Assembly (NCBI GenBank): GCA_000091205.1
Contig: AP006502.2
DNA from: Cyanidioschyzon merolae
Lineage: Eukaryota
Reading direction: 5' to 3' (one strand)
DNA: 64,000 nt
Shown here piece by piece: positions 95-63,290 of this stretch. Numbering within the stretch: the first letter of the stretch is position 1; each line of letters begins with the position of its first letter. The translations under genes and the position numbers were made by a program. The notes below the pieces were generated by a model. It was given only the letters and a program-made list of their open reading frames with translations. It was not told where the DNA came from and did not search any database.

Positions 95-600
95 CGAATC
101 GACATATAGCTATCCCTGTGCGCTCATTTCATGCGAAGCGATGTCGCACTCCTCATTGGAAGCGATTGCTGCAATAACGAAACTCCAAGCGCAAGACCCT
201 TTTCCATGCAAACAGAAGAGACGCGATCCTCTGGAAGCGTATCCCATGAGAGGCACCGTGCCGCTGGCGAATCTCGTTTTTTGGATGAGGACAACGAGAG
301 AGGGACTTGTTTTTCGAATAGAGTCGATGATTTTTACACGACCAGTCTAGTAAGACTCTGGACATGAACTTGTGCATGGTCGCCAAGCAACGCCACGGAG
401 TTCTCTTCGTCGTCAGTCCGGCGGGATGAGTTGCTGAACCCACGAGTTGCCTTGCAACGGGAAAATGAAATGCTTGAAACATGCTTGTTTCGAACAATCT
501 ACATGTAAGCGCATGGGAGGCATGGAGGTTTGTACACGTGGATTGTATAACGTATCGGTTACTCTAACGAATCCTGTTCGAGGGGCCGTCACAAATCATC
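95..600 (+). repeat. Dispersed repeat family 1, copy A. About 500 bp and non-coding. The core translates spuriously as ..EAIAAITKLQAQDPFPCKQKRRDPLEAYPMRG..
   Basis: Nucleotide similarity to copies at 16.9 kb, 42.6 kb, 52.9 kb, 58.0 kb and 62.9 kb. Shared blocks include ccatgcaaacagaagagacg, ..atttgacgtg(g/a)caag..cagt, cttgccttgaaacag..gaagcatg and ctaacgaatcc. The spurious peptide is conserved across copies (KQKRR..EAYP..RG). Confidence 0.55.
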
Positions 601-1044
601 TTCACGACTGTGACATAGCGAATTCCAGTGACAAGTAGCGGATACAACCACTGCGAAAAACACGACTAAGCATTCTAGAATTGGGTCAGAGTCTGTAAGC
701 TCCTCTCGCTACGCTTCGGGTGCCGAGACCGTACTTCTGAAAAACTGCGGAAGAAATCAGACGACAGGAACATAGCACCCAGTCCAGTGTTCCAGATGCA
801 TCTGGTACGAGTGTCGTCGCTGCCCAGTCAGAGAGCCAAACGACGAACTCGGAGCCGTATGCGACAAGCAACCTCCGCTCAGGTGCCGAGTGTATCAGCA
901 CTTTCCGTAATCGTGCGTGATTTGCATCGTGGAATCAGTGCGTCTCGCCTTCGATCCCATTCGCTGACCGGCTGCCTGCCTGCCTCGCTGGCTGGCTGAT
1001 TTCTTGCTCAGGTCCCGCTGACCCTGCGACTTGGTTCATTGTGC

Positions 1045-8348: not shown

Positions 8349-11300
8349 CGGGCGTGTAGCGCGGCGGGAAATGCACGATGACTCGAGGGCAACGGAGCTT
8401 TCTCGGGTTGTCTCAGTATTGGAGTTGGTTGCTCAAGACAGGTTCAGAGACGAGAGGATGTATTTTGGACGGGGGCCGCGTTCCCCTCGAGAGGCTGGAA
8501 ATCCAAGACGAAGCGCAACCCTCGGCAGCGAGTGTGCGCGCTCGCAAGCTCTCGCGGCAAGCGGTCGTCCGCAATGCACTACGGATGTCCTCGATCCTCG
8601 CTTTGTACCTTCAAGTCGTTGCCAGTAGCACGAACGCAACTGCTGCGCTCTCCTTGCCACGAGGCTGGATATCGTGGAACATTGTCGGCGACAGAAAGTC
8701 CAATCCAGTGCATCCTTTGATAGAGTGACATCGGACTCGGTAGTCTGCGAGGTGTATTCGTTTTCGATGCCATGCACCCGCTGCAACTCGACATCGATGC
8801 CCACAGTATTTCGCGATGCCCCCTGGTCTACCGCGCTGGCTCAGGTGCTGATCGTCACTGGCGCTCATCGATTGCGATTGCTCAAATCATCGGTCTAGGT
8901 ATGCGCATCCATTGCATGCGACACAGGTTCTTCTAAACTCATTGAACAGCAGCTTGTCGCCACGGCAGCGGCACGTGGCAGAGCGCAATCGAGCAGATGC
9001 ATCGGAATATGGCGCGAACGGTTTGGACGAGGCGCTGCACCCTGCAGATGCAGTTACACCCAGAGCGGAGAATTCAGGATCTCCGGTACCTGCACACCAT
9101 TTTTGGGTTTGTCTATCCAGGTAGCAGGTATTCAACAGAGGGAGTGTATCGTGGATGTTGGAAAAAAGTCGCCGAAAGACTTTGTGAAATCACGGCTGGC
9201 GTGGAAGAAACTTGCATGTGTATGTCAGTGACTCTATGGACGGACAGCAGACGGATGAACCGCCCTTCCTGTCGTCCTTGTCCAGAATGTCGCGAGCCGA
9301 AACGGCACCGCTCAAACTAAACCTAAAAGACTGTCTCGTTAACAATACGTTTCACTCTGTTTGGTTTTTGCGAGATACCACCAAAGAAACCCGCGGGTTC
9401 GAAATATTCCTACTTTTGGTACGAACGGTGAAGTAGAGACACGAATGGACTGAGAAAAAAGCACGCTTCTCTGGGAGACAGTCACGCGTTGAACAACACG
9501 GTATTGATTTCGAACGCGAACGTTCATACCAGGAGGGCACGAGTTCTACGCTCCCGCGATGAGACTCCTTTCGGGAAGAATCGTTGACCTGTGTATGCGT
9601 ACGCATACAGGCGCCATCCGATATTCGTATCGGGGAGACAGACGAGCGGAACGACATTACTCGCCCGGGCGTCGATTCAGGTATGCAGTCGCCTACGAAG
9701 AGCTAAACGGACGGATTCGTTCAACAAATAGCCTTTCGTCGAAGCGCTCGTCACGACTTCTCCTTCATATAAATATAGATGCTTCTGTCCTGGTCGGAGA
9801 CACGGTCGCTCTCCATGACTCCAAAACGGCCAGTGTGCATACGTCTGAGAATGGCGCTGAGCAGCACTTGGTGCGAGCCTATTCTCATTCGTTTCATCGA
9901 GCCGAAGGTGGGTACTCTGTTTTCAAAACACCGTTTCTAGGCGCGCCATTTCACAGACGAGTCGTTCGCATCCATGCCACTGAGGCTCTTCGAAAACTCT
10001 TTCTCTGCATTCATGAAGCCCGACCTGCCGTAGTGCTTCTCCGCGACTGCATGGGAGCAGCCGCCCAGCAGCGCATTGACCCGTGGCCGTGCTCGCGACA
10101 GCTGGGGTACTAAAAATGGGCACGAGCACCAGTGGACACATACATACGTAGCAAAAAGCGAGCTTCAATTCAATTGTCCATCGAGTTCGTTTCAGTTCCA
10201 GGGCAAACAAGCGGATACAGTGTATGGCACGCGCATCTCTGCTACCCCGCCAAGTAAAGCAGAACGAGGAGACTCCACTGAACAAAATAGAAGGATCTTT
10301 TCGAAAAGAGGACGAGGCTGGACGCGAAGGAAGCACTGCCGAGGCCAAAACATCAGTCCGAAACCGTTGCCAACGCCTCCATATCCAAGCACATCAACGA
10401 GAAGCATCTTCCAAAGCGTAGGTAACAGACCGCTATCAGGGATCGCGTCGCTTCGTACTCCATGCAGGCTCGTCTAGCTTCTCTCGCCCTGAAGTGCGTC
10501 GTCAAGCAACTGCTAGCATGCCTCTCGGAGACTGGGCAGCAACCTGTACCCATTGCGCTGGCGCTTTCGATCCGACCTCCGTAGTGCAACTGATGTGCGG
10601 AACAGAAGATGCTGAACGATCTGATATCTCAGGGGCTCGTTTTCATCGCGAGTCGGACATGGTGGACGCCACGAAGTATACCAACAAGTTGAATGATGAT
10701 GGCGTCAGGACTCATCTCCAAGCCCTGACCACCGTTTCGAGCAGGGTGGAATGCGCTGGCCATTTGCTCCCGAGCGCACACGAGCGTCCAAAACATACCG
10801 TGCTGCGGAAGCGTCCATCGACTTTGTGTGGAGCGAACTTTCGAGGTTACTTTCTGGTAATAATTCTGGCTATCGTGCTGAAATACTGCGAGCTCTTTAA
10901 TGAAAGAAACCGGTAACCTGCAGGAAGGGGCATTGGATTCCCACCCAGAGCCAGGCAATGGCGTGCCGTATACGTACACCGGAAAGCATTTTCCGGTGCG
11001 GTCGGTAAGCCATAAACCTGATCCATGACTCGACATTCCCGGAGTATACGACTTTGCAGTCCGGATGCAGACGACCGTCAACTCGATCTCCTGCGAGCGG
11101 CTGGGGGCGTCCGCCGATATCTCCAGGGTGCGCTCCGTCCGACACGCCGAGATATGCCCCAGGTTCAGGGCAGCCTGTGCGGGAACTCGCTCAGGACGTG
11201 TATGCTGTACGCTTCTCGTAACGCTGGTTACGACGCAGTTGCCTGAGCAACAGGTATTGACGTAGTTGACCCTAGGTGTCTTGTCTGGTGCACTCGAGCA

Positions 11301-16065: not shown

Positions 16066-16879
16066 GAAACGTCCAGCTCAGGATACCAGACTCAGCGCTG
16101 GAACGAGCGTGCCATGCGTTGGTAACGACAGCATCTGCAGCGGTTACGCTGACGCGCCCACCACGGCTGGTCATTCACTAGTTCGTTCGCTTCGACGCAA
16201 AGCGCTGATACGGTGATGACCGCAAATGACATGGGACACGTCCATATGGCTATATCGAGCGTATCCGCTAACGTTCGGGTCAGTTTCCTCGTATGATGAG
16301 CACCAGACGTTGAGAGGTTTCTCTCTGGCTGCTCCATTGTCTTTTGCCTCCTGTATCCGGCTTTCAATCCGACTGTCTCTCCTGCGCCTCCATTTTCGGT
16401 GTCATCCGTCAAAGGTTGTCGATGGTGGTGTTCAAGTCCTGATTCCGCAGCTTTAGGCTCCTGTCAAGGCATTTGATGCACAGGCGCAAGTTGCGATCGT
16501 TGCTTCACTTCCCGTGCTCATCTTGTTTATACGCAGCGTCGGTGCGCTTTTCGCACCGCTTTCATGATTATTCTCAGGCGCCCTGCATGTATCCAGAACT
16601 TTAACTCATCAGGGATGCTGCGCTGTGGAGCGTGAACACAAGCCGCTTCGCTCAGTGCATGCCCTTGACGGGAGCGGATGATACCGTGGAATTCCTTTGC
16701 TCGGTTTCAGCGCCTGGAGCCTTCGACTTCCAAAACGCACCTGTTCTGAACGCTTTCCTGAACGAGTACTGAATCCGCTGGACAAGCAAGTCCAAGATGT
16801 TCCATTCGATCGTGGATTTCCGGAGCGCAATGCTTCCCAGGATGACTCAGGAGCCAGAGAGACCGTTGAGGCTGCAATA

Positions 16880-17420
16880 CATGTCGAGAAACGCCGACCC
16901 GTCTAGGCTCCCTTCATGCACAGCGGTGACGCATGCCGCAGTCGAAGCTATCGCTGTGATAACGCAAGCCCGATTCCAAGACCCTTTCTCCCGTGCAATC
17001 AGAAGAGACGGGTCCCTTTGGTACCATATCGAATGAGAGGTACCATGCCGATTTGGAATTCGGTTTCACCAGTTGCCATACGGGAGACGTGGATTCATCT
17101 GTGGAACGGGGCATCGATTATTTGACGTGACAAGCACAGTGAACACCCGGCATGCGCTTGTGAACAAGTCATCACGGGCGGCGTGGCGTATGTTTCCTCG
17201 TGCATCCACTGGAGAGCATTGCTGCGCCCATGAGCTTCCTTGAAACAGAGAGATCCAAATCTTGAAGCAAGCGAGATTTCAGTACGCGACACATAACGAA
17301 TGGAGAAGCGTGGAGATTTGTCCATATGCGTTGGATTCTGATAACGCATATTTTACGAAAGCTTGTTCGTAGGCGAGATGGATCATCCAGATTGCTGTAT
17401 TCTAACGAATTCCGGGGTAA
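16880..17420 (+). repeat. Dispersed repeat family 1, copy B
   Basis: The same sequence blocks as copy A appear in the same order: ..gaagctatcgctgtgataacg.., caatcagaagagacggg, gattatttgacgtgacaagcacagt, cttccttgaaacagagag, tctaacgaattcc. Confidence 0.55.
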
Positions 17421-18354
17421 GGGAATCCAGGGATGCACTCCAGGAAAACAACATATGAATCCGTTAGCTTTTGTTGCTGGATTCCGAATGTTGACGTTGT
17501 ACATGTGAACAAATGTCGAACAGTCGCAAGTCAAGAGCAGAGCGAGCACTGAAGCGTCCCGTTTTTATCGGACACGACCACAACGTCTGCGTGATACTCG
17601 ATCACCACTAGATCACTGGATCTGTTGCATTCTTATTCAAGGGGAAAATTTCGGAACGGGGGCCTTCGAATATGGAAGCGTTCACATAGCGGGCCTCGTT
17701 GGTAATACACTGACGAGTGACAACATTGGGCCACCCAGCGGAACCCGGTTGTACGCATCCAATCGACACTGCAGGAAGGCTACAGCCGTTGTGTGTACAT
17801 GTCGACACTCAACGGAGACGACAACCGTTACTGATAACGCATCCAAGCCCAGCTTGTGTGCATGAGATAAAGCCAAAATGCTGCGTATTTTGTAATCAGC
17901 GGAGAAGGTGCGGCAGCGCGCTTATCCTTGGGAAAGTTTCCCAAAGAGATCGTGCACAGCAACGAACTGCTATGCTTTGAAGCTGGTTTTTCCGCGTACG
18001 AACACTGCGGTAGGTCACTGAAGCGACGTCCACAGCCAATATGAGAAGACGAACCAGAGCCGCGAACCCTAGGATACTCTTCGCAGCTGCGCTGGCTGCG
18101 AGCGCTCGTCGAAAGTGCTTGCTGCCCAGAACGCAGTGCCGCTCTTGCACCCATACGGCTCTGAGACTGTGACGCACCTGGCGTCTATGGAGAGTAGCAC
18201 ACGTTAGCGGTTGACGAATGTAGTGCGGACAGCAGTCTACCTTGGTTTGCGGCTGTCTGAGCCCAGGTCGCTGAAGCGGATGCGCACGCCTCGTACGCGC
18301 TACAGGACCCCAACTGCCAGACGTTTCTCCGTGCGGAAAAACATAAGCTTGTGT

Positions 18355-18376
18355 GCAGCAGCAGCAGCAGCAGCAG
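18355..18376. repeat. (CAG)n microsatellite, about 7 units
   Basis: A direct read shows gcagcagcagcagcagcagcag. Confidence 0.9.
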
Positions 18377-34236: not shown

Positions 34237-34267
<31 letters not shown>

Positions 34268-34449: not shown

Positions 34450-35100
34450 AGCCAGACGCGAGAAACGTGGGAGAGGGTTTTGTCGTGTAGTCGTCTTCGG
34501 GCGCAATATTGGTTTTCCTGCGAGGCGGTGCATAGCGGGCGCTCGAACACACGATGCCATGTACTGTATGGATCGCAGACGAATTGCCTTGGAGATATAC
34601 ATGCTTTACTGAACAGTCCAAGGAGGACTGCATTCATTCTTCGATTCAGTCATATCTCAGTAGTCAGATGGTTGAGGAGCGTTCAAGGAAATAAGTGGAT
34701 GTGCGGCGAGCCAATAACCGATATTCTGAAGCGTGCTTGTGGTTCATGGCAGAGAACGACCCGTTGATCATTGTCGGGAAAGCAACAGCGATGATCGCGG
34801 CCGCCACGGGCGTCTCTGTTTCTCAACGGCTTGTTTGTTTGGTCCTGAAAACATCGGGATACTGTCCAAGAAAGATTCCTAGTTCTTTGACGGCCATCTT
34901 CCACCTAAATCGCAACTATAGTGTTCCTGGAACGTCGCGACCGGTATGAAGCACAGGGACGACGGTTTGTTTTCTCAGTCGACGATCGTTCCATCGGATG
35001 ATACGGCCGGAGCCTATATGGGTATTCGTGGGGAAGGAGCCTGTTTTATGTGCGATCGAGCTCGAGGAAAGCGACGACATCAGCATCTGTTCCAGCTGCA
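34450..35100 (-). repeat. Dispersed repeat family 2, copy 1, about 600 bp
   Basis: The reverse complement aligns block by block with 47085-47660. Shared blocks are gaatacccatataggctccggc, cgactgagaaaaca, gatcaacgggtcgtt, and cagtcctccttg.actgttcag.aaag...ggcaattc.tct..gatccatac.gtacat.gcatcgtg. Confidence 0.6.
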
Positions 35101-39700: not shown

Positions 39701-39802
39701 AACACCACCAGGAGAGTCAACGTCTTCAAAACAAAGCGAACACTCCTCTTTTTCAACGCAGTCGATCGACGGCACACCTGATCTATTCATTGTTTGATTC
39801 AC
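36797..39802 (-). CDS. USP5: Ubiquitin carboxyl-terminal hydrolase, USP5/isopeptidase-T type (ZnF-UBP + USP + 2xUBA)
   Basis: A cryptic zinc finger sits at the N-terminus, followed by a ZnF-UBP domain (CSSCDLRENLWLCLSCGHLGCGR..HAWEHF). The catalytic Cys box is GMRNMGNTCYISSVLQ and the His box is GHYVAYV. There are two UBA domains (MDMGFTLQQARVALQASNHDGERAIEWLL and LMSMGFSADASRQALEASRGDVEQALNMLL). Confidence 0.92.
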   Translation of the reverse strand: MNQTMNRSGVPSIDCVEKEECSLCFEDVDSPGGVCVCLTCLQCFCAYRRHAELHTRKTKHQVFANLRRAPLAEADRLEQSTLVQAQKDAAEAERGTTATLAPQVLRTSEGYTIQGAESLEAPVPPVRLEGIYDVAAKCWVACLREPEAGSARNWSSDLRSGAYPASQLEAWITLAESVHEAAAMSRKEQVQAWELQLQPCEHTLTVCRLEGIDVDTSLSRSTAKCSSCDLRENLWLCLSCGHLGCGRTNFDGTGGKNHAWEHFQAYGGMNADHAVAVKLGTITADGTADVHCYVCDELRVDPELERHLSEFGIDIRREEKTEKSLIELEIEQNVQLNLKELGSNFSDHNPSLRRITDPSLYAPDVVATGMRNMGNTCYISSVLQCIYALVFAPYRWYQEPRALSFPFKNKSLDRHYTRCEAGSALQCFECQMRKLADGLLSQRYWKREHTPQRIDELGRASAAKIHEHEHATMPKPVKTGAPDHEAPSRMAEAPEPEPAPATSDVQTPAEGAGLLRRYQPPQGIAPRMFQNLIGQGHPEFATKRQQDAHEFLEYFLSRCTAEARRQGTRDPARFFIFPLVQRTECLRCHRIGMNSTEATSLYVPIASSVRGAEYSTRSKAISAEQDQESSARVSLAACLDLSVASELLSFQCPSCRASIGVADPNQAERRESPSRCPPFLIMHLRRFEAGEDWVPRKVSTAVTFSDPQRGLEQRADGTIVLDMKPWLVVDESEWDRLPPERRMEAAEAPASGTPSGRALTRIDPSERLLMDMGFTLQQARVALQASNHDGERAIEWLLDSANSAAANGASTPEEEPTANTEAETSAALASSSRTRYALAAAMVHLGASLQTGHYVAYVYRNKRWLLYNDEKVFDAGQNPSALEQAFVLIWRRDDEAFDATCVDWMTSDRLRLESDTAVSRVQPLHPVATSMDQPLRFDGTVLNWNTTRGASANEAAAAPTFSFADQLDQLMSMGFSADASRQALEASRGDVEQALNMLLSA

Positions 39803-39996
39803 CCTAGTCTGCGAGTTCGTATACGCAGCACGTCAGCGCAGAGCTCGTCGCTTGTTCAGAAGCGCGTACGCTCGGATCGACCATGGGAATGGCGGCAGTG
39901 CCGCGTGCAGCGCTGCAGGGCAACGATCGCCAAGCGTCGGCTGCTGCAGCTCCGAGCGATGCGAGGCTCCGACCGGCCCAGTGGACTGGTGATGGT

Positions 39997-40220
39997 GATC
40001 CATGGTCAAGAGTGTGGAGGATATGGAGGCACGTACCTGATCCATGGTCAAGAGTGTGGAGGATATGGAGGCACGTACCTGATCCATGGTCAAGACTGTG
40101 GAGGATATGGAGGCACGTACCTGATCCATGGTCAAGACTGTGGAGGATATGGAGGCACGTACCTGATCCATGGTCAAGACTGTGGAGGATATGGAGGCAC
40201 GTACCTGATCCATGGTCATG
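39997..40220. repeat. 42-bp minisatellite, 5 complete units plus a partial one (unit gatccatggtcaagagtgtggaggatatggaggcacgtacct)
   Basis: The unit boundaries are at 39997, 40039, 40081, 40123 and 40165. Units 1-2 carry agagtg and units 3-5 carry agactg, otherwise the units are identical. The array lies about 195 bp upstream of the USP5 start codon in the divergent intergenic region. Confidence 0.9.
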
Positions 40221-41729: not shown

Positions 41730-42419
41730 ATGAAGTGATGATGGAATACCATCAGCGCGGCTGACGCGTTATGAAACTGTACAACTCGGAGCGAGTCGTT
41801 ACCAGTTGTTCGCCTTTCAGACAAGAGTTTGTTGGGCGCCTCAGAAAACTAGATAGGTATGCACTGGACGGCAGCGAAGGGCGTTGGATTAGAATCCGGA
41901 ATGCAGCAGCGAAGCGCTCTTGGATTATGACGGAACGCTGTATCTCGAAGCAGACTGTCATAGGAACCCGCATCTGCAGACAGTTTGGTTGGAAACGCTC
42001 TATGGATCCGAGCTCTCCGTGGATGGCAAATGGAGCGCTGCACGGCATGTTTCCGCGTACGATACGCTTTCGCTAGGGCGCAGTGCATTGTTTCGGGCTC
42101 AGGACGAGGTCGTGGTGCTTGCGCGACCTCCCAGGACCCGACCTGTACGCATTTGGGCATGGGTCCAGTTCCGGATGCTACCATGCACCGGTTTCAAGTA
42201 AAAATGGGAAACTGAACTGCTCGCTCTGTTTCTGCCTAGCGATATCCCGCCGTAGATTAACGATTTACTGGCTCGATTTTGAGAAAGCAGCAGTACGGGC
42301 TCACGGATGCAAACATAGTTTTAGGATTCATGGTCGTCTTCGCGGAGTGGCTCCTTCCAAGCTTTGGCGTTGGAATTCCTTACGATACTGGAGTCACGAC
42401 TCCAGATGCCCTCGAACAA

Positions 42420-42900
42420 GCGTTCGTAAACTAATCGACATCATAATCCAGTGTATACGTACAGGCATCCAATCTTCCCATTTCGTTATATGGAGCATGC
42501 TCGGATCACACTTCGTACAAGTTTTCGATCATTCTAATTCATTGCAACTCGTCGAAATAGCAATACGAGGGAAAAAGCTCGACCTTGCCCCTTGACGACT
42601 TGTTCAGAAGCTCTCACCGGAACCTCACTAAACTGCTCACTGCAAATAACCGATTCTCCTCGAAGGGTATATGCTCATCATTTCTAGGCCATCGACGAAG
42701 TGGCGCTTGGTGGCCTCATGATACCTTTCGCATGATACGCTGCCTGGGGTTCCCGTCTCTTCGATTTGGGAGGGAAAGAGTGTTGCATTCGGACTCGGGA
42801 GATCACAGCGATCGCTTCTAGTGGAGTGCGCGCCACCGTTTTCCACGGCTGGGGCGTAGACCTATCGAAATTTCCTGGGTTGTCATCCTGCCTGAATTTT
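42420..42900 (-). repeat. Dispersed repeat family 1, copy C
   Basis: The minus-strand spurious peptide PLEAIAVISRVRMQHSFPPKSKRREPQAAYHAKG is homologous to the copy-A core. A downstream block containing atcgacatcataatccag is also shared. Confidence 0.5.
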
Positions 42901-45166
42901 TCCTGCGTTGCTTGGTTCATCAAGGACACGATCGCATTCCACAAATCCTCTAAAGAAATGGAACAGCATGCGCTTCCAGGTGCATCGAAAAGCGTCCTCG
43001 CAGCCGGCGATCGCCAAGACCAAACAGCGATCGTCGGGTACGGCACCGTGGAGTGCAGAAACGGAGTTCTGCATCAAGATGGACCTTTTCAACGCCTGTC
43101 AAGCGGCATGGATCGACCGATGAAGCAAGTGTCCTCGAAGCACAAGGTGACGCGCTTTGAGAGATGTTCGGTGGACGCATGTGAACCCCTGGCCACTCGG
43201 AAGTGTTGCCGCTGCGGGGACGCACCGATGCTGTACACAACGACGACGAATCCGGTAAGCGAAGCATGGATCGAAACATCCACATCTGCATGAGATTCAT
43301 CCATAACACCCGAGAAGGGAGAAACAGAGACTTGAATGCGGGTATCAACATTCTTGGATCGCTGGCAACCGAGCTCGACGGCCAGATACGGTCGGCGGAT
43401 GTACAGTTGGATATCAGAGAGTGGAAAAGAAGCAGTCAGACCAAAAACCCGCAATGACTAGCGCTGACGATCGTCGAAAGAGCCCAAACGGTTGTGTGTA
43501 CACCCGATTTGGAGTACCTGTCCATTGTATTCTTGACATGGGTATCAATATGATGAACGTCGATCGCGAATCAGGTATGTGGATGCCAAGGGCGCATGCG
43601 CAGACGCGCTCCGATAGGTTGCAAGCGACTTGATCTCTTCAAGGCGCAGCACGAACAACAGACGCATGATCCTTCAAACTGGCTTTGCATCTCGGAATGA
43701 GAAACTTATGGGAGCTGCTATGCGAGAGTTTGCAAGCTCGACTGTTCAAAGCCTGACCAAAGCGAATTTCGGTCTCTGGGTTTCACAGATACGACCGGTA
43801 ACTGCCAAAGACGTCGAGGCGAAAGTTTGCTTGTTTTTCGAAACGCGTTTGGCGCAACGAAAAGTATTGTGGCGCGTGACCAGCAACGGCAAGCAATTCC
43901 AGCAAAACGATGACAACCCACATGCGCGAGTGCTGACCACGCGGCTCAGTTGCGGACTAGAAACGCCTTCTTGAAACAACGTGGTTTGATCCCGCTCGTT
44001 CCTGCCTGGTGGAGAATTCCGATCCAGCAACCGAGCGCGTGCAGTGGGCACACCGAAGGACGTCGCCGACCTGGCGCCAGCATCGACTCGACGTGTCCAG
44101 TTGTCGCTAAACAGGATCATTTAGCTGGGGGCGCCTACGCACCAGTCACTGTGATGCGACCAAGACACAGCGATTGGAATACTTGGCTGTTTCTGAATTT
44201 GCGTAGAGCGTGACTTTCAAAGGGGCTGAGAAATGCAGCTGCGGACAGCACCCTGAGATCCTAAACAAGGCGCTTCCCAGAGATCTCTCAGCGCGCAGCG
44301 AACAACACGAATCTGCCAGTCGAAGCGAGAAGCGCGGATGCCGTCTGTACCTGCGCGTTGCCACAAGCCACGAGACTTTTTTGCAAGCTTCACTTGCCAC
44401 TTTCGGAGCGCATGGTGTTGGTGAGCGGTATTGTTGCAGTTTTCCGAGCGAACGGCACGTCGCCACTGTCTGCATCGCTGCAGGTTCGAAGCAATCTGGT
44501 GGATACTCGTGAGCTGCCGAAAGGTACAACCTTCCTGCATGAGTGCTCGTCAGCGTTGTTTTTTATCTTCGTTGCAATTCAATGGCATCGACGCGCGCTG
44601 TTTCCGATATATTTAATGGTAACGGCTCCGGGACGCACGTTTAACAAGTACACCAGTTCGGAGCCGCGTCTTAATCGAGAAACGCGGGTCGTTGCAAATT
44701 CCTTGCAGAGCCAGAACGACACGCAGGATGTCGCGAAGCCGTCTACGCAATTCTACCGACTCCTTGACAAGTCCAACTTCATATGGAACACGAGCACGTC
44801 AATGAGAGCGTCCATAGTCTGTCTGGTTGCCAGAGAGGTGGCCCCTGAAAGCCGGCCTTTGCCGTCTCCTGAATCAGGGACGACGCAAACAATTGCACAC
44901 CGGAAACGAAACACGCTATTCGGAAACGTGGGTTCACCACGGCAAAGCCGCGTTCAGCGTGATACGCTCGCGTGTGGTTCACCGAAAAACGCGAGGCATA
45001 CCCTCGGCGGAACAAACCGCAGGGACCCCTGCCTGCATCGTCGCGGAATTTCAAACGCTTCCGAGCATGCTGGTCTCCGACTGCTTCCTCGGGCGTTCAG
45101 CGCTGCCGATGACGACCATCATAACCAGGGTTCACGACTTGGGGCGCCAAACGGATGTGGGGATTC

Positions 45167-45727: not shown

Positions 45728-47084
45728 GGCAGATCACTCTGCCAAAGAATCACTCCGAGTCCCGGCAGTTCTACAACGCCTGCTTCGAGTCCCTCTGCGT
45801 CAGCCAAGCTGACGAACGGAACCGAGCCCAGCCTGACCGAGCCGGACTCCGAAGTTGACCTCCACTCTATCGGACACACAGACTAACGTAGTTTCCTTCT
45901 CGGAGAGGCGTCTCCTGGTATATCTATTGCTGCGTTTCCAAGGTGTGCCTCGTGGGTCCGCCGCCAACCGCATCCGCCACCTGGTGCGCCGTACGAACAA
46001 GCGATCCACCGGTTCACGCACCGACGCCGACTTTAAAGCTCCGAATGAAATGTACTTCAGATTTTCCGCGAAAATCTTTGCTCTCTTGCCAGTTTTCAAC
46101 TGGAATGCGCATAATATGCGCGACCCGAACGTTGCAAACAACAGCGCTTCGACACGTGGCTAGGGCAAACGCTGCCATCGACGGTGGACGGTTGTGGCGC
46201 GCCGCCCGCCCTCGAGAGTGCGTCTACAGACGCCGACGCGCAGACGCCTCCCAGACTTGTGTCGATCGGCTGCCTGCTCTCGATTTCAGCTGCTCCTTGT
46301 ATATCTCGAGCATGAGAGGCTGATCCACAAAAAGTCGGCTTGCGACAGCTTTCCGGGCCTCGTCTTCAGGACTACACAGAATCTGGTGTTGATGACGGCA
46401 TTCAAGTCCCGGTTCGCGAACGCCATGTATTTATAGGCGCTGATGGAACTCATACAAGCAAGGAGTCCTCAAACTCGTGCCCTCTGTGTCGCTACAGTCT
46501 CGCCATTGTCGCGTCGGGCAAACTGCTTTTGTCGCATATCTCCCCTGTTCTTCTTCGTCGCTTGCTCGTCTCCGTTCGACGTTCGACGAGAAGAGGATTC
46601 TTTTTCGTTTTTTCTGGCATCTGGCGACGACGGCGCTCCAGGATCTTCGACTTTTATGTCCATACCTTTTCCTTGGAATTTGTATTTCTGTTAATGGAGA
46701 CACTGGTAGATGCCCTTTCGTGAGGATCCCCTTGGAGGGCAAGGGATTTGCGGAAGGGAAACGACATGCGCCCCAGCGGTATCGTGCTTCATGCTTCAGC
46801 GATTTTCCTAGTGGAGCGATCATCACGTTGTACGATAGAAAACACTCCTTCGATGGGTTTGAGCCACGGATCCTCTAGAGGTTTGAAAAGAAGCTCTACC
46901 CCGATATAATCTCAAAAACCGCGAACGCAAGGGGAATGCTGGAATGCCGCGTTATCCAATAGAAGAACGTCGCGAGATGTCAGGGAAAACTTCTTCAATG
47001 ATTCGATGAAGTCTCTGGTTTACTGTGATCCTTGTCTGGGAGCGATACTGAGGCCGCCAAACGAATCCACTACAGCTAGAACAT

Positions 47085-47660
47085 ATGATGATGTCGTCGC
47101 TCTCTTCGGGCTCGGTCGTACGTACAACAGTTCGCTGCTCCGCGAATACCCATATAGGCTCCGGCGGTTCCGTCCGAAGCAAGTCCTATCGACTGAGAAA
47201 ACAAGCCGGTGTCCCTGTGCTTCACATCGATTGCAATGTTCAACGAATTCTATCGTTGCGATTTCGGTGGAAGGTGGCGCTCAATGAACTAGGAATTTCA
47301 AGGGACTGTATCTCAGAAATTTCAGGACCAAACGAAAAACTGCTGAGTACCAGACACACGCGTGGCAGCTTCCATCATCGCCCTTACTTTCCCTCGATTG
47401 ATCAACGGGTCGTTTTTCTACCAGTGACCGCAAGCAGTCCAAAAAATATGGCTCTCTGGCACTGTGCGCATATACTTGATTCGAGGATTGTTCCTGAGTT
47501 ATCTGAGTACTGCGTTTTGACCGACATGAAGGAAAAATACAGTCCTCCTTGCACTGTTCAGAAAAGAAAATATACTAAAGGCAATTCATCTATGATCCAT
47601 ACGGTACATTGCATCGTGATGTCAATCTCCTGCTATAGACCCCAACGGAGATGAAGCAAA
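47085..47660 (+). repeat. Dispersed repeat family 2, copy 2. It carries an intact 189-codon ORF of unknown meaning
   Basis: The copy aligns with the reverse complement of 34450-35100 (see copy 1). The ORF 47085-47654 is uninterrupted here but broken in copy 1. Confidence 0.6.
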
Positions 47661-49226
47661 ACTGAGCTCAAAGCCTCTAAGCCGGACGGTGTCGACAGAT
47701 GCGCTTCGATTCATGGGCGTGCCTGCGACGGACACGGTGACGATGAGGTACTCTGGGAATAGTCGATCCATGCAACTCCATAGAGAAGGCGAGTTTCGAT
47801 CTCACTGTTCACATAGTGTGTCTGAGTCGCAAGGAACAAACCGCTATGAAATATGGTAAACACATGCTTGCAACGAGTCCAAATCAAGGAGCAGGCGAAA
47901 AAGGAGCTAGTCTCTGCATGCAAGTATGAAACATGCGAGCCAAAGCCTAAAGAGCGTTGGCGGAGCTCGTTCCAGGTTTGTAGGTTATGAAGCAAACATT
48001 GAAACAAGTCTACAAGGACGATAGGGACCGACGGAACACCAATCTGTGCGCATATTCGTAAACCTCGGCCAGCGCCGAGCACCGACACGCATGTTCAACT
48101 GTGCCAGGTGGATGACGAGAAAGACTTTATGGTGGGTGCGGATCCCTGCTTTGAGGACGTTATGGTCGTCGCCGTACCTCTACATCAAGAGAATGGAGCC
48201 AAAGTCTTGAGCGCAATGCAAATGTACCTGCTCAGATTCTACAGGGATAGGTATCAATGGGAGGCGGGCATCATGGACGCCAGGAGGCATACCGACAAGT
48301 GCAATGACAACGTCGGAATCCATGACGGCGATCTGCGCACCGTATCGAGCAGAAGTGGATATTTTCTGTACGCTTCACTCAGAACGCGTACCTGGGCGTC
48401 GAAATGGCACAGGCACACGATCTATGGCAGGGGCACGTGAGACGGCGCTGGGGTCGCCAACGATGTCTATTGCGCAGAGGCAAGCAGCGTGCATTTACCA
48501 ACCTATCTCATGCGTTCGCAAAAGAAACCGGGGATACATTGCGTCGCGTGGCGGTAGTCTACGGTGTCGGACGTGTCGTATCCCGCAAAGCATGCACGCG
48601 TATTCCGTCGCGGGCCTGCAACGCGTGCTGGAATCGATTCTGTACGATTCGCGTTAAAGTCTCGAGAACAACACGCTCGCATCACGAGCACGGAAACACG
48701 CGGAAACGGTAAGTGATTTGAAAATTAAAACAGAGTCCGGTACAGGAGGTGGTGTACTGTAAGGAGACCAAACTCCAGATGGCGCGGCAAACAAGGGTAA
48801 GAGGCTTGCTATGGTATGATTCCACCATCAACAATGCGAAGAATCACTTTTTGCGACCAGAATTGAACGCCTTGATTAGCATACGAAAGGATGCCGCACT
48901 TGCGGAACGTCCACCGGCTTTGTTTCGAGCGAACGTTCGATGTCGTCCTTCAGCAGTCAGCGTGGGCATTATGCTGCAACGCTGCAGACTTTCGATGCAC
49001 GGAACCAGCGGCGAGGATATAGAAATTGGAACTCTCACCGCAAACAACGCTCTGGTGTCGAACAGCACAGCAACAACGTTTGTGCTTCGTGTACGCATAC
49101 GCACTGGAAACGATACTCCAAGGCAATCAGAGCACGATAATGACGCCCCAAGATTCGATATCAAAGAGTATCGCTTGCGCACAGCTCAGCGTCACGACAT
49201 CCAATCGTGAACATATCTGCAGAAGC

Positions 49227-52106: not shown

Positions 52107-52699
52107 GCTTCAGAGTTATAAAAAATTGGCTTAGAATTATTGCCGAGAAACTTCAGTAGCCCAGTAGCGTCTTTCGCGGCAGCCCCGAGGCGTCTCGAAA
52201 CCTCTACTCCCAAATGAAGCACGCTGGTACATAGGACGAACGCGCATGCGTGCGCCGCTTCAGAGGTGACATCTCGATACCGTCCGTTAAGTTCTAAAAG
52301 TTACAGAAAAATACATGTTCATGGAGAATGCCGCTCGAGAGGACGACGTCGGATGCCAGCGAGAGTTCCGAGGAGACAGAGCGACGCGTTCGTGCGCCTC
52401 GCCTGGATATGCAGCGTTTCACATTGGTACTGCCTCGCCGAGCGGGTGACCTGTGATCGAGCAGGAGAGCTCATTGACGCTGCATTCGTGTCAGGCGAGA
52501 ATGCGACACTGGACTGCTCGTTCTGTAAACGCGTTGAGGTTTTTGCGTACGTTTTAGGTGGACAAGCCTTTGGCTTCGAAATGTAGCAATAAGGGTTTAC
52601 GAATTCATACGCTTGTTCGGGGTTTTCAGTCCTCGTTTTGGTAGCGGGTCCTTCGATACTTTGCTGCTCGATTTCATGAGGTCAATGGAATCAAGATGT

Positions 52700-53150
52700 T
52701 TCACGACGTATTTGGACATGGGTTTGTGAAACAATCGATATCATGATCCAGCTCATACGAAAAAGGCTGTAATCTTCTCGTTTCCTTTCACGAAGCATGC
52801 TCATATCATGGTTCTTCAATTTTTCAAGCCTTCCGTTCCAAAACATCTCGTGGACCAAGCAAATAGCGCTTCTAGATTGATGAGCAAAGAATTCGACGTG
52901 GTTCCATAAAGCCATCCTCACGAGCTCATACCAAAAAATGACTGAACGCGTCAGATCGAATCATCGTTTCTGTTCGAAATACAAATGCTTCTTCCTTGTT
53001 GCTATCGAGAAATCAGAAATCGACTGCAACGCGATACATCTCTTGGGAGATACAATGACAGGCTCCTGTTTCTCCTTTTTGCATACATGATAGTCTTGGG
53101 CTCGGACTTGAGCCATCGCTGCGATCGCCTCCGGTGATGCGAGCGTCACC
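52700..53150 (-). repeat. Dispersed repeat family 1, copy D
   Basis: The minus-strand spurious peptide reads EAIAAMAQVRAQDYHVCKKEKQEP. Shared blocks are atcgatatcatgatccagctcat and ttcaagccttccgttccaaaacatc, in reverse orientation relative to copy F. Confidence 0.5.
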
Positions 53151-56100
53151 CATTCGCAGGATGGCAGCGTAGAAGAATCGAGATTTCTCTACTTGATAGC
53201 CAATATGAGTATTCCTTACAGTGCTCGTTTCATCATGGACAACTACGCGTTCCGCAACTCCTCCATCGAATAGAACGGCGCGAGCTTGCGTGTACAGCGG
53301 GCACAGTATTCGCCAACTGGATCACCTGGACATAGCTCGTGATCGTTGGATACGGCGCTGCCGGCATTAACGGAAAAGGGCAACGAACGGGGCCTCCTCT
53401 ACCCGTCAAAGGAATGCACTGTGCAATGAATGACGCCGTCCGTCGCCGCGGGACAGCAGCCGAAAGAGGAAGTGTGTTGGACATATGGGAACGCCTGATG
53501 ACAGTCACGTGTCACCGCTGCGAAATGCGCACCGGTTTTGTACACAAAGGCAACGAAAACGACACACAGAGCGTAGATCGCAACTCCCGCCTGTGCACGA
53601 CACGCTTTGACAAGGAAAACGGAGACGACGGAATCGGCAGTTTAACATAGTCAGCAACATCCTTCTACTGCTGATATCGGAGATGCAAGGACGGTCGAGA
53701 CCGGCGTATTCAAAGCCGGACATAAGCGAGATATAAAGGATGCAGTCGAAGAAACAGCCCGCAAAGTCTGCTGGTGATGATTTCAGAAACAGACTCAAAT
53801 TTCGGCGAGACGCCGACTCCTACGAGACCTGCTCCATTGTATTCGGGCGTGGATAGAACCGGATGGTGGCATTGCCATGACGCGTCATCGGCAAACCCGA
53901 ATGATGTACTTCGGAGTCCGAAGGGTCCCTTCAGAGCTCATGCGACACGCTTCGCTGTTTATCTATATCCAGTGCCGAGAGCGTTTCAGGACTGAAGGAA
54001 TTCTGGAGTCGTGCACGCTTCAGCACGAGTTCGTTGCTCGCGAAAATGTCTTAACGCTCCAGGCTATATACAGCTTACCACGCAATTCCATGGGGCGCAC
54101 GGATTGTACCACAGGAAACATTCGTGCTCGCTGCCTCTGTGAGCGAGCACCGGAAACTTTCCAGCATTGTGTATGCAGCGCTTGATATGCGAGGTTGCTA
54201 GCTATCACCAAGAGACCATATGTTTCCTGGTACTCTATTCAAGCAAAAAACTGACCACAAACGTCGACAAGGGAAACTTGAACTTGGGACTGCTCAGAGA
54301 GACTCGCTGCATTCCTAACCCTGGATCGACGCTCGCATCCCAAATTTGTCTCCAATACATGCGACCACGCTACACGAAAACCAGGTGTCCACGTCGATAT
54401 TTTGACATTTTTGTAGCGCAGGCTCCTGGTGCACAACAACACATCGCCAGGCTGGCGAGAGCTCTCACGGGTGAGGCCCTCGGGAGCGACGCGGATCCAT
54501 GGCTGGTAGCTACCGGCACCTGGACAAATCGTATGGAACGACAAAAGCATCCCCAGAAACGGATATCCATCGTGCAATACAGGATTTCCGGTTCAGGGTA
54601 ATGACCCTGTACCATAACGGATAAAAAAGAGATGCCCTCAGGCAGGAGAAACGCTGCATGACTCGTACGCCAGGAGCGAAGCGTCCAGGGACAGCGGCAG
54701 TCGCGATGCTGGCGAACGAGGGCCTCGCGTGCCGACACGCCGGCCAGCCGCATCGCGCCCAGTGCCGCAAACGGGCCGCTTTCCTTCACAGGCGGCGGCG
54801 TTTCTAACTCCAGGGCTTTCATTGAAGGCTTTTACAGTCAGTTGGTGAGCGAGGCCTGCGACCCAGCACAGCACGGGCGTCTTTCACGCTGTAGACGACT
54901 CCTGAGTACTAGATCCCACTGGAGAACGCTGCCCTAGAACGAAGCTTGGATATTAACACGACTTGCACGAGTTTCGTTTGAGGGTAGGTTCGTGGTGGCG
55001 TCCAGTGCCAAGGAAACGCTTCCTCCGCGGTGCAGTTCGGGGTGAGTGTTCTACCGACGCGAACACGCGTGTTGGTTATTGAACTAGAACTAGGGCTTGC
55101 GCTGTTCGGGGAAGGCATGCCGTGTCCGTTCGGGTACAGCATTGAGGACGTGACGACCCCGGTGAATGGGAACGCAAGTCGTTTAAGGAACTGTCACGGC
55201 CTTGCGAGTGCTGCCCGCTCCTGCAACGCGTCCGCTGCGCGTCATGACCAACAAATTGCCGTCGTCGCTAGCAGCGGGAAAGAGCCTGCCGTAGAAGACT
55301 ACGAACAGGACTATTTTCCTGGCATAGGAAGCATTTGTTTGGAGCAGTCTCGCCGAGCACCTGAGGAAGAACGGCCGAACTGCGTGCTTCCGGAACCTCC
55401 TTTGCGACCCGAGGAGCTGAATCAGGGCTACTGGCGGGATGTCGAAGACGAGGAACTGTGCGCTGACGGAGACGAAATGGAAGAACCTCTAGAATCGACT
55501 AGTCCACAAGAGACGCCTCTGGGTACTGAAACACGCCCAACGGAGCACGACGCGGGAGTACTCGTCGTCACCGGCTCGAAAACTTCCGAGGATGCGTCCG
55601 CATTGTCGGGCCCTGTTGCTATACAGCATACAGACGAAGCGAACGAAGCGCTGGCGGGGATGTGCGTTGCCCACGGATCGGACTCGAGCACCTGCAACGG
55701 GTGTACTGCGGAATGCGAGACCTCTCCGGCGAGTCGTGACCCCGTCCATGCGCTTAACAATAGACGAGGATTGGGGAGCTCTCAGCCATGGAACGGGAGC
55801 AACAAGGCCGATTGGTTAGATTGTAGCAGTATTACGGAGAGTGAAAACTCGTTATTCACGGAGCGCGCTTGTCAAGGCGGCATTTGTGGCGACTTGGAGC
55901 CGCGTGCGGCACTGGAGTGCGCACCTGATCCTTTGTCTGGCGACCGTCTGGCGGAGGGTCGAACTCGCACACTACCGAGAAGGGCAGCACGCTCCCCGGC
56001 ATGGCGCCGAGAGGCACCTGTGGCCATGTGGCCACCGCGCCCAGCATCCAGTCTGCAATCTAGCTCGAAGCTCGCTGCAACCGTTTCGGAGAGCAGTGCA

Positions 56101-56199
56101 TCTGCGTCGCACTGGACCTCGACACGAGCAGGTGACTCGCCGCCGGCTCTGGGCTGCATGGCGCCAGCGGGTAACGCAGCAACAAGTCCTGTTCCTCAG

Positions 56200-57372: not shown

Positions 57373-57779
57373 GTGTGTTTGGATTCCTGCATGGCTTTAT
57401 GAATGCGTTCGGTGTGCGTGTTGGTGTGTGCCATGTTCCAGCATCAGCTATTGGAACAAGGCAGCGTCCGACTCGCTGGTGTCGTCGATCCTGTGGTGTC
57501 CTTGGGTGCCGCGACTCTTACTGCCGGCAGATGGCGCACGCGTGCTCCACTTGTGTGTCAGATAAAAATGGGATACGCGAGTCCTCGCTCCCTTCCTGTT
57601 TCAGCGTTTTTCCACAGAAGCTTTTTAGATAGATAGCCTCGACGTTGCAAGTGCAGTCAAAAGCGCTAACGAATTCGTTCATAGTTTCAGGATGCTCAGA
57701 AGCGCGCTTTCCGAAATGGCTCCGTCGACGCTTTGTAGCGGGAAATTGTTCCCTCATTCGCATCAGGGTGATTTGCGAC

Positions 57780-58240
57780 GCCCTCGGACAAACTTGTGTA
57801 AAACAACCGATATCATCATCGAATTCTTGTGCACGAACTTGTATTCTTCTTCGTCTACCGCGAGTAGTATACTCAAATCACTGATACTTCACGTCTTCGA
57901 TCTTTCTGTTGACATGTAACTCGCGGGTGCAGCAACGTGCGCAGCCGGATTGACGACGAAGAAACACGACGTCATCGTTTGATAACTTCTTCACAAGCGC
58001 ATACCACCTATGCGTTCACTGAACTTGCCACGTCAAATACTCTATTTCGTCCGGGAGAAAAATCAACCTCTCTCATAGTGGTCATCGATTCGTCTGCTTT
58101 CGACGGCCGTTCGATACCCCTCGCGGGATATGCTTCCAGTGGCTCCTGTTTCTTCTGTTTCCATGAAAAAAGGTCTCGCACCTGGACCCGAGTCATCGCA
58201 GCGACGGCTTTTTTAGAGCGTGCATGACTGCTTTGCGTCG
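57780..58240 (-). repeat. Dispersed repeat family 1, copy E
   Basis: The minus-strand spurious peptide reads ..SWKQKKQEPLEAYPARG... Shared blocks are cccggacgaaatagagtatttgacgtggcaagttcagt and gatgatgatatcggttgttttacacaag, both as reverse complements. Confidence 0.55.
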
Positions 58241-59295
58241 AGAGAGCGAAGACAGATCCATTTTTCTCGACCTGTTCTCCGACTTGGATTTCGCTTCTGT
58301 TACTTGTTTCATGGTGAACAGCATTGTGCTTATTGGAACCTCTGTCGAAAAAGGCAGCGTGTGCTTGCGTATGCGCCCGATACAATACGCACCACGGGAA
58401 TCGCCCAGAAGAAGCCCCTGATCGTATAATGTTGAGGCGTGTGCGGAGACGGAGGAATGCATCACCACGAGCCTGTTGTACTCGTTATGTACCGAAGGAT
58501 GAAGCGTGTCTCCATATGGCACAGGGCGGCGCTCTGGGAAGCGGTTCTCGCCGACCCATGAGAACAGCCAAGTGTTGCAGCTGAGACGGTCGCACCGAGT
58601 CTATCGGCAAAACAAGATGAAAATGGTAAGCAATGCGAAGAGCGTAGCTTTTGGCTGTGCTTGACATGCGTCGACTGGAATACGAAGTGGCGAGCTGGTC
58701 ACTTGAACACTACACTGAGCATGCTTGTACTCATGAAAACAGTGCTGGAGGCAAAGGAGAAACTGGTGTATTGTACGCCGGATTTACGAGAGGAAAAGCA
58801 TGCAGTCAATGAAATAGTAAGCAATATCTGGTGTTGATAACTGGAGTAAGAGACCCCAAATCTAGCGTTTACATTCGAGATAGCCGGACGCATCCTTCTC
58901 GTTTCATTCTGGCACGGTTGTAGCAGCGAAAGATGCATGGAAAAGGGTACCTGGCTGTACGACGAGCGCGTTGTATACGACCTCTGCCTGACAGCCTGCC
59001 GGACTGGACACGAGAACGGTTCGCGTTGTGCAAGTCGTACCATGCCCTGCTGTGCTGAGGTCGTCGACCCGCACGGTGTCGCATTCGTTCGGAAACCAGA
59101 TGATTCTTATCTTAACTGAGCGCTTTTTAGGTTTTATCCCGTTGGGATTACGCCGGTTCATCTGCGGGGCCTACCGCTTTCCCTGCGAGCATGTTCCGCA
59201 GCGATGACACTTCTGGCTGGTACTGGAAACTGCGTGGTGTCTCGTAGTCGTCCAAGACGGAGTAACGCGGCACTGATCCCGTTACAGACCCAGCG

Positions 59296-59330
59296 TTGCC
59301 GTGTCGTGCCGTGCCGTGCTGTGCCGTGCC
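59296..59330. repeat. Imperfect (CCGTG)n pentanucleotide repeat
   Basis: A direct read shows ccgtgtcgtgccgtgccgtgctgtgccgtgcc. Confidence 0.8.
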
Positions 59331-59643
59331 CCGCAGAGGCGACCTGGCTGCACCCATGCGATGCGTACCGGTCACTGTCAAGCTTGGATATCGCTCTGTC
59401 TGTTGCAGTGAATCCGATTCCTCGTTTACTGCACGTGTTCAGGGCCAGGTCCCGTCCCGCCGGGAACGCAGCGCTGGACGAGGACGCATCACGAGTACTA
59501 GCTTGCTGCGTTGCTATGCAAGTGATGCGCTTCTGGCCACTGCCGGAGCGCCCTGAACGCTAATGCGTATGCGTTGATGGATAGGAGGCATTGGGTCCAA
59601 TGTTCCAGCGTCAGGGTCTCTTTATCGGCCACGAATTACGCAA

Positions 59644-61782: not shown

Positions 61783-62799
61783 AAATTAGATGAGGATGTC
61801 GAAGCACAAACGGTTTGTAGCGCGGAGTCACCCGGATAACCGTGGAAACACTCGGCACGACGGGTTCAGTTGCTCCAGCACGCTCTTGACGACGACGCAA
61901 GCGGGCCCAGCGCGGACGCGGCATAGCGTCGAAGAAGTACCGACGCGATGCGCATGGGTCTTGCATACGAACTGTCCTTATCGGCCAGGTGCGTCTATAA
62001 ATGTACATATTGTACAAGATGAGCCAAACCGGTTCATGCTGCGCGGGCTATCTCGACTGAATCGCCCGAGCTGCTTCATCGAACAGTAGCTTGCAAGTTT
62101 TGCTGTCATTGTTAGAACCGTGTCAGCGTGGAAGTGGACGCATCAGCTTGGCCAACTCGAACGGTCACGCGACTGCTTGGCCAATTTCCTACGCTCAGCA
62201 GCACTAGATTTTTTGGACTTTTTTCCTGCCATGACATCCTTGTCTTGTCTCTGATCCCGGGCTTTTAACCTTCCGCCGGTCTCTTCTATCAATCCAGCTC
62301 CGCTGTCAATAGTCGAAGGATGCTGATGGTAGCGTTCAAGCTCAGATCTGGGTGCTTCCGGCTTTTGCCTACGCCTTTCAGGTCCGGACAGAAGTTACGA
62401 ACTACGTTTCGCTTGCCATTTTCACCTTCGTAGCATACAGGCCGGATACGCCTTCTCCAGTGGTGCCACTTGGCCGAGGTCAGGTATTGCCATATGTCTA
62501 CCAGAACGCTTCGTCCTCCGAGCGCTGCCCCGTGGCACGTGGATGCATGCTTCATGGCCACGTACGCGACCTCGGCGGATTCAGAAGCTTCCGCTCGATG
62601 CGCTGCTCCCTTGCCCCGCCTGATGCGGTACCAGACGACAGCAGGTTTCCTCAGAGCGACTTGCTGAGCGAGTGCTCAGTTTGGTGCACGCGCAAACGCA
62701 TGCTATTGCATTGGACGGTGGATTTACGGAACAGGATATTGGCCATGATGAAACAGGTATCGGAACGAACATCAACGCTGGGGAACAAGTCGAGAAACT

Positions 62800-63290
62800 T
62801 CGATGCCCCTGCACTCGCTTCACATCAATCGGTGACGTAGTCTCCACGGGACTTGATCGCTGCGATGCCCCAAGCCCGAGTCCGAGGTCCCTTGTTCCAT
62901 GCAAACAGAAGAGACGGTAGCCTCTGGGCGCGTATCCCCTGAGAGGCCGTAAGCACGTGTCGAGCGCCGTTTTGCCGATGGTAAGCATGATCGGATGATT
63001 TGTCTCTCAAGCGGAATACATTATTTGACGTGGCAAGTTCAGTCATTTTTTTATGATCTATTCATCACGTCCTCAATGAACGACGTCGATCTTTCTTTTT
63101 CTTCAATCCCGAGGCACGAGTCGCTGCGCCTGCAACTTGCCTTGAAACAGAAGGATTCAACAGTTGAAGCATGTGTGATTAGAGATGCTGCACGGAAAGA
63201 AGCTGGAAGAATTTATGCTCATGCGAATGATTTGGATCATGATATCGGCTAGTTTACGAATCCTCGTTCAACAGCGCGGCGAATGGCCCT
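62800..63290 (+). repeat. Dispersed repeat family 1, copy F
   Basis: The shared blocks ccatgcaaacagaagagacgg, acattatttgacgtggcaagttcagt, cttgccttgaaacagaagg...gaagcatg, gatcatgatatcggct and tttacgaatcc appear in the same order as in copies A and B. Confidence 0.55.

Follow-up and report, generated by a model that had tools for sequence, protein, structure and literature searches.

A 64-kb stretch of DNA from chromosome 20 of Cyanidioschyzon merolae 10D (contig AP006502.2; called the window below) contains six related repeats lying in both orientations, which we regard, with a probability of roughly 85%, as neutrally decaying relics of one non-autonomous cut-and-paste transposon family of the IS630/Tc1-mariner type. 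The full-length unit measures 1.36-1.39 kb (approx. 1.37 kb), and each full-length copy is bounded by terminal inverted repeats (TIRs) of 26 nt. Since its first part matches transposases and its second part matches Fanzor1 nucleases, the unit is a chimera, in which the final quarter of a Fanzor1 gene is joined to about three quarters of an IS630/Tc1-type transposase gene lying before it.

Copies, limits and terminal repeats

The sequence-only reading of the window had placed six copies of a non-coding repeat of about 500 bp in gene-free gaps that looked AT-richer. The six intervals were aligned with MAFFT and a repeat scan was carried out (mean column identity 66%). The profile of this first alignment gave exactly the six matches in the window in an nhmmer search and no others at E<10, and each copy was recovered by the profile of the other five with E=1e-116 to 1e-203. 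The positions, the orientations and the shared ordered blocks, which are visible in the sequence itself, were thus borne out. So was the setting of the copies, all six being intergenic with a GC content of 0.49-0.52 compared with 0.557 for the window. The size was not: the homology runs approx. 280 bp past the 3' side and approx. 600 bp past the 5' side of the intervals first described, which correspond to the 5' 40% or so of the element, taken from its antisense strand. The similarity extends over the whole unit and is not of the low-complexity type.

An alignment for termini and TIRs, which the reading had proposed, was made with 21 copies, six from the window and 15 from hot-spring metagenomes, and the element coordinates were mapped on it. 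The 5' TIR has the family consensus CACCCGTGTCAGATGAAAATGGAACA, and the reverse-complemented 3' end of the 21-copy consensus, CACCCATGTCAGAATGAAATGGAACA, agrees with it at 23 of the 26 positions. The dinucleotide TA follows the 3' end in nine of the 13 copies that have that end.

In flanks of +/-3.5 kb no further similarity was found among the copies, and the homology ends at the element ends. Since the flanks outside these limits are unrelated, the copies represent independent insertions and not parts of a duplicated block. The c2 insertion (Table 1) is also present in a 99%-identical metagenomic strain (L003), where it lies at a contig end. In Cyanidiococcus yangmingshanensis (L002) the element is absent at the sites orthologous to c1 and c2, the gaps there being 205 and 675 bp, and the profile gave no match. 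The six copies alone make up 12% of the window.

Transposase and Fanzor1 remnants

The transposase remnant lies on the strand opposite to the orientation given by the sequence-only reading. It comprises approximately the first 228 codons of an IS630/Tc1-mariner-type transposase of about 307 aa, including the helix-turn-helix (HTH) region and, of the catalytic residues, the first two Asp. In the 21-copy consensus this first open reading frame (ORF) runs from nt ~100, reads MYSLDIRSAAIRAY...VAIDETAFD...FIMDNIAFHKSSIE and contains one stop in approx. 238 codons. The consensus of the six copies matched the NCBIfam IS630 model (NF033545) with E=2.9e-11, under the 100-bit equivalog cut-off, and also Pfam DDE_3. 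The 21-copy consensus scored 35.6 bits against DDE_3 (gathering score 28.6), only positions 3-94 of the 146 of the profile being covered, and gave weak matches with HTH_Tnp_Tc3_2 and HTH_33. In BLASTP the consensus was aligned with the intact 307-aa transposase P0141 at E=4e-26, collinearly from residue 1 (MYSLDxRxxAIRxY) up to DNxAFHK, where the alignment breaks off before YSPDYNPIE.

In bacterial IS630 and eukaryotic Tc1-mariner transposases an N-terminal HTH is likewise followed by a DDE_3 domain with the motifs 'DE(T)xF' and 'DNxxxHK'. Unlike these enzymes, the fragment ends after the second catalytic Asp, without the YSPxxNPIE region in which the third catalytic residue is found. The fragment thus cannot be an active transposase, and since the third residue of the DD(E/D) triad is absent from the consensus, the family is non-autonomous, which had been among the possibilities named by the sequence-only reading. 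A full-length transposase C-terminus was present in no copy of the family. A 'YSPRGSP' word in the transposase frame was considered as the third catalytic motif and rejected as a coincidence: the DNA under it is Fanzor-derived in the other frame, where it shows approx. 70% identity to P0139/L036.

The second part of the unit is the 3'-terminal stretch, ~165 codons long, of a Fanzor1 (TnpB-like) nuclease gene, with the zinc ribbon and the NRDLNAAINIL motif. It lies in a second frame of the 21-copy consensus, from nt ~810 (EQRALACAADRVLAEGIAQKKPVIVGYGTGRGNGGGH...VVDIWEHLTTAKCHRCE...CMKCVDNSRKRRNRDLNAAINILRLLTTELEGKERPAY). The consensus passed the cut-off of PF07282, the TnpB/Cas12f zinc-ribbon domain (31.2 bits, cut-off 26.3), and scored 33 bits with a green-algal Fanzor1 C-terminal profile, with which the conceptual translations of c3 and c4 scored 19 and 14.7 bits, respectively. 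Against the intact Fanzor1 P0139 (551 aa) BLASTP gave E=2e-39, with approx. 70% identity across the first 87 residues, and the remnant aligns to residues 315-513 of that protein. The motif of Bao & Jurka (2013), [TS][TS]-x-x-C4 zinc finger-x(5,50)-RD, is present as ..HLTTAKCHRCE..(22 aa)..CMKCVDNSRKRRNRDLNAAINIL. The match starts at residue ~315 of the intact proteins (P0139, P0140), and the RuvC-I (GLDPGR) region and the N-terminal WED/REC part have no counterpart in the unit. A compact TnpB/Fanzor spanning the whole unit was also considered; this was ruled out by the first 228 codons, which resemble IS630 and align in order with P0141 from its residue 1 onwards.

In the consensus and in all window copies but c3 the transposase and Fanzor parts lie in different frames; c3 reads through, owing to an insertion of 1 nt that is private to it. 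The DNA homology to the intact Fanzor1 gene of L036 begins at element-profile position 781, and the truncated copies in the metagenomic loci L010-L013 end at profile positions 751-781. In these loci two 5' halves (L011 2853-3634 and 5106-5856), spanning profile positions 1 to ~750-780 and hence reaching up to the chimeric junction, face each other with approx. 1.5 kb of unrelated, apparently non-coding DNA between them; possible explanations are a variant whose 3' part differs, or a pair of truncated insertions. The copy in L006-L009 (L006 2801-4202) contains an internal tandem duplication of approx. 140 nt, profile positions ~991-1129 being present twice.

All-vs-all BLASTP of the stop-to-stop ORFs of the copies gave matches in all six frames, which indicates similarity at the nucleotide level only and no copy with an intact gene; a conserved small ORF on either strand is ruled out by the same pattern. 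Of the repeat-overlapping ORFs that were looked up, none is recorded as a C. merolae protein at NCBI. The family does have a coding ancestry: the strand opposite to the one first described carries a decayed transposase fragment and a Fanzor1 3' end. The peptides that had drawn attention to the family ('KQKRRDPLEAYPMRG') derive from the antisense strand.

Intact relatives of both parts occur together. P0141 lies on a 3,273-bp contig with a 636-aa PF07282 protein 93 bp downstream, and the 3,610-bp contig L041 carries a second transposase, P0142, with a 657-aa Fanzor1 after it, the pair being bracketed by a 34-nt inverted repeat. A degenerate-pattern scan of the JGI metagenomes returned 30 further loci from hot-spring samples, representing approx. 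12 insertion sites and ~16 copies in all; these loci carry the 1.37-kb unit too, and several have two copies within 2-6 kb. The scan detects only copies which keep one of six exact 8-residue consensus words, and none of the six window copies does so. Since ~16 copies were returned despite this limit, the 22 copies seen must fall well short of the true size of the family.

The nearest intact Fanzor relatives are P0140 (712 aa, L036 5001-7139), P0137 (610 aa, L037-L040) and P0139. The neighbours of the Fanzor1 genes in L036-L040 are giant-virus-like (Rpb2, a UvrD helicase, a 2,625-aa Peptidase_S74 protein, ATG8 and many short unannotated genes), which hints at an exchange of Fanzor genes between giant viruses and cyanidiophyte algae. 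Scans of IMG/VR with P0141 and P0140 found nothing.

Table 1. Positions of the six copies in the window, of their remnants as delimited by tblastn, and of selected features
Feature	Position	Strand	Length (bp)	Transposase remnant	Fanzor remnant	Remarks
c1	1-813	-		733-80		5' part only, 3' part before window start; contains 95-600; nhmmer match of element profile 2-805; 5' TIR ends at 813
c2	16217-17580	-	1364	17504-16805	16678-16310	Full length; 152 bp upstream of Sec1-family gene start (16065)
c3	42186-43544	+	1359	42263-42957	42958-43489	Full length
c4	52483-53855	+	1373	52593-53270	53264-53781	Full length
c5	57550-58920	+	1371	57635-58349	58346-58862	Full length; between tryptophan dioxygenase and pescadillo genes
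c6	62115-63501	-	1387	63425-62711	62711-62211	Full length; 333 bp upstream of pescadillo start
5' TIR (c4 example)	52483-52508	+				Conservation rises here in the 21-copy alignment
3' TIR (c4 example)	53830-53855	+				Among-copy homology stops here
Chimeric junction (c4 example)	53258-53275	+				Transposase end '..FIMDNxAFxxSSIE', Fanzor1 start '..EQRAL..VIVGYGTG', one frame apart
ETF-QO ORF						Identical to XP_005539143.1

Decay, origin and rival explanations

The 21 copies have diverged by 22-33% (mean 27%) from their consensus. Pairs of window copies are 56-60% identical over the whole unit and each copy is approx. 73% identical to the consensus; all pairs being equally distant, the pattern is star-like, as expected from one burst. 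Stops and frameshifts occur in the copies. The divergence at codon positions 1, 2 and 3 is 0.253, 0.256 and 0.255 in the transposase part and 0.283, 0.278 and 0.268 in the Fanzor part, and that of the 5' leader and of the 3' untranslated region (UTR) with the TIR is 0.31-0.33, compared with 0.25-0.28 in the ORF parts. Since the substitutions are spread evenly over the codon positions and the untranslated ends are no better conserved, the copies are in neutral decay, without sign of a retained coding or non-coding function.

As intact transposase-Fanzor elements of 3.3-3.6 kb exist, the family is best read as an internal-deletion derivative. The parent would have been a composite element of approx. 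3.3-3.6 kb in the order TIR-transposase-Fanzor1-TIR, from which an internal deletion of approx. 2 kb would have taken most of the Fanzor gene as well as the transposase C-terminus, in which the third catalytic residue lies, both ends being retained. The resulting master copy of approx. 1.38 kb would have consisted of a 26-nt TIR, a leader of ~80 nt, ~228 transposase codons, the out-of-frame junction, ~165 Fanzor1 codons, a short untranslated stretch on the 3' side and the other TIR. Its Fanzor1 stretch would have included the VIVGYGTG strand, the DxxE..TTxKC motif, the CxxC...CxxC zinc ribbon and the NRDLNAAINIL RuvC-III motif. Transposase supplied in trans by a full-length relative may then have amplified it in a single burst, partly into nearby sites; the copies have since accumulated approx. 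27% substitutions, stops and frameshifts without selection. Local transposition would be a plausible cause of the close spacing of the copies, six in 64 kb here and pairs within 2-6 kb in several metagenomic loci.

Several observations weigh against this interpretation. The homologies were obtained with the consensus, single copies giving weak family matches or none; Pfam searches with the actual ORF fragments of single copies gave no matches. In the transposase the identity with the intact composite elements is only about 30%, a full-length parent with the same TIRs as the six-copy family was not found, and no transposase lies within 5 kb of the closest intact Fanzor1 genes (L036-L040). In addition, TA precedes the 5' end in only two of 19 copies, TG and CA being commoner there; a TA target-site duplication is not demonstrated at the present divergence.

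It is rather improbable that such derivatives were selected as 'guide-RNA hitch-hikers', which would borrow not only the transposase but also, in trans, the Fanzor nuclease for RNA-guided re-copying into emptied sites. The ground for this idea is that two unrelated families of the window keep the last 117-165 Fanzor codons together with the 3' end; if true, it could explain the burst as well as the local clustering.

Somewhat less probable still is the explanation that the repeats are a decayed gene family of a genuine fusion protein, in which an IS630-type DNA-binding part and a partial RNase-H fold would have been joined to the RuvC-II, zinc-ribbon and RuvC-III parts of Fanzor, the junction possibly being read by frameshifting. 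Both consensus frames are nearly stop-free, the open Fanzor frame, approx. 190 codons long, overlaps the transposase frame at the end of the latter, and c3 can be read without a break. However, c3 owes this to its private insertion, the five other window copies and the consensus being out of frame; the protein would have a transposase lacking its third catalytic residue and a Fanzor lacking RuvC-I and the N-terminal two thirds. Moreover, two database searches returned no protein spanning both halves and no copy shows a codon-position signal.

The chance that the repeats are functional non-coding modules, as the sequence-only reading had also allowed, is a little smaller again. They would then be a non-coding RNA family, a retained Fanzor guide-RNA (omega/fRNA) gene or a recruited promoter or insulator. 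In favour of this, all copies are intergenic, two of them sit 150-330 bp upstream of gene starts, and the second, unrelated family of the window also keeps just the Fanzor 3' end, where fRNAs are encoded (PMC10530073). The 3' 300 nt of the consensus fold slightly better than shuffled sequences (z=-1.77), but this value is not significant, seven of 200 shuffles folding as well. No Rfam matches were obtained at the gathering thresholds in the window, nor in two related loci, and the divergence is flat along the length of the unit, the leader and the 3' UTR with the TIR being if anything more diverged. Since an internal deletion must keep both ends, the retention of the Fanzor 3' end does not need selection.

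A short interspersed nuclear element (SINE) or another retroposed RNA polymerase III element, to which the apparent size of ~500 bp, the several copies and both orientations had pointed, has been refuted through the TIRs and the homologies to proteins: the unit measures 1.37 kb, its content comes from a DDE transposase and a Fanzor gene, it has no A-rich or simple-repeat tail, and ARAGORN and Rfam show no tRNA, 7SL or 5S relatedness. Equally, pieces of one larger segmental duplication, which the high local density of six copies per 64 kb could suggest, are already refuted within the window by the sharp homology ends at the TIRs in every copy, the dissimilar flanks, the mixed orientations, the equidistant pairs and the presence of the unit at ~12 unrelated metagenome sites. 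The family is an ordinary fossil; neither a new kind of element nor a functional RNA has come to light with it.

Known elements and other repeats of the window

Fanzor1 genes inside Mariner/Tc1 elements have been documented (PMC3627910, PMC10530073). Examples are PUl-1 and PUl-2 of Pythium ultimum and PGv-1 of Phaeocystis globosa virus (Bao & Jurka 2013, PMC3627910), and an association of Fanzor1c with Mariner/Tc1 has been described (PMC10530073). Like these elements the six-copy family is TIR-bounded and has a 5' transposase followed by Fanzor1 in one orientation, the TIRs being 24 bp in PUl-1 and 26 nt here. The P0141 contig and L041 show the complete transposase-then-Fanzor1 architecture at 3.3-3.6 kb, as in the PUl/PGv-type elements; unlike these, the window copies measure 1.37 kb, keep ~75% of the transposase and ~25% of the Fanzor and are all pseudogenised. 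This comparison covered architecture and domain families. With MITEs (miniature inverted-repeat transposable elements) and other internal-deletion derivatives the family has in common that it is non-autonomous, TIR-bounded and burst-amplified, with the transposase presumably acting in trans. The suggestion of a MITE was right as to the lack of autonomy and otherwise near only in spirit: classical MITEs are non-coding and under ~800 bp, and a unit of 1.36-1.39 kb, ~85% of which is recognisable ORF remnant, is too long and too plainly ORF-derived for one.

The published Fanzor1 repeat of C. merolae, CMe-1A / TE-N2_CMe (about 150 and about 70 copies), probably corresponds to the 3.2-kb WSV486-like interspersed repeat for which Nozaki 2007 (PMC1955436) gave 253 copies. 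CMe-1A and the six-copy family share the genome, are both old and interspersed and both contain Fanzor1-derived sequence. Membership of the six-copy family in CMe-1A was considered and rejected: in tblastn the CMe-1 protein, taken from the supplement of PMC3627910, matches only a 10-residue 'NRDxNAxINI' word of it (43323-43352). The zinc ribbon CxxC...CxxC is intact in the six-copy consensus and degenerate in CMe-1, and the six-copy family has TIRs and a transposase fragment whereas CMe-1A has been described as TIR-less and unclassified. The CMe-1 protein strongly matches three other places of the window, 35506-35855, 46235-46663 and 47958-48964.

Two of these places belong to a second, unrelated family with two copies in inverted orientation, 34532-35855 (+) and 46235-47636 (-), which are ~1.3-1.4 kb long and 69-73% identical, and which show no DNA similarity to the six-copy family. 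They carry an IS630/Tc1 transposase resembling P0142, which in this family includes the C-terminal YSP..NPIE region (47217-46723; 35279-35452), and approx. 50 bp downstream of it the last ~117 codons of a CMe-1-type Fanzor1 (35506-35855; 46483-46235). This combination suggests that the 'unclassified' CMe-1 Fanzor repeats of C. merolae were elements of the mariner/IS630 type. The third place, 47958-48964 (+), is a larger CMe-1A relic beside a copy of the second family (CMe-1 residues 357-706, E=1e-28, in two frames). Very weak tblastn matches, each with E=0.003, were obtained at 9444-9749 and 10348-10551 (+) to residues 110-214 of the Tc1/IS630 transposase P0142 and to the N-terminus of CMe-1; these may represent a still older relic, or chance. 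A near-perfect tandem array at 39996-40218 consists of 5.3 copies of a 42-nt unit with 99% matches, a period divisible by three, and lies just upstream of the ubiquitin-hydrolase gene at 36797-39802 (-).

The long intron-free ORFs of the window encode housekeeping proteins of eukaryotes, namely MCM8, ETF-QO, a Sec1-family protein, importin-alpha, a kinesin, a ubiquitin hydrolase, tryptophan dioxygenase and pescadillo. In this gene-rich stretch recognisable transposon relics amount to 11.4 kb, or 17.8% of the 64 kb, when the six copies are taken together with the second family and the CMe-1A fragment. C. merolae is the textbook case of a 'minimal' free-living eukaryotic genome, for which 0.7% transposons and ~5% of one interspersed repeat are quoted. 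Nozaki 2007 (PMC1955436) reported 253 copies of the WSV486-like (Fanzor1-like) repeat and only eight 'class II' elements, closest to bacterial transposases. These eight may be the best-preserved copies of families such as the present one, while relics of the kind described here are probably partly hidden in those counts or missing from them; the six-copy family itself is possibly already in Repbase.

Thus even a 'minimal' genome contains old, decayed relics of DNA transposons in which an IS630/Tc1-type transposase was paired with Fanzor1, and the Fanzor repeats of C. merolae, if of the mariner type, may possibly have been exchanged with giant viruses. The results are of use for repeat annotation, for the natural history of Fanzor and for estimates of the transposon content of a model 'minimal' genome.

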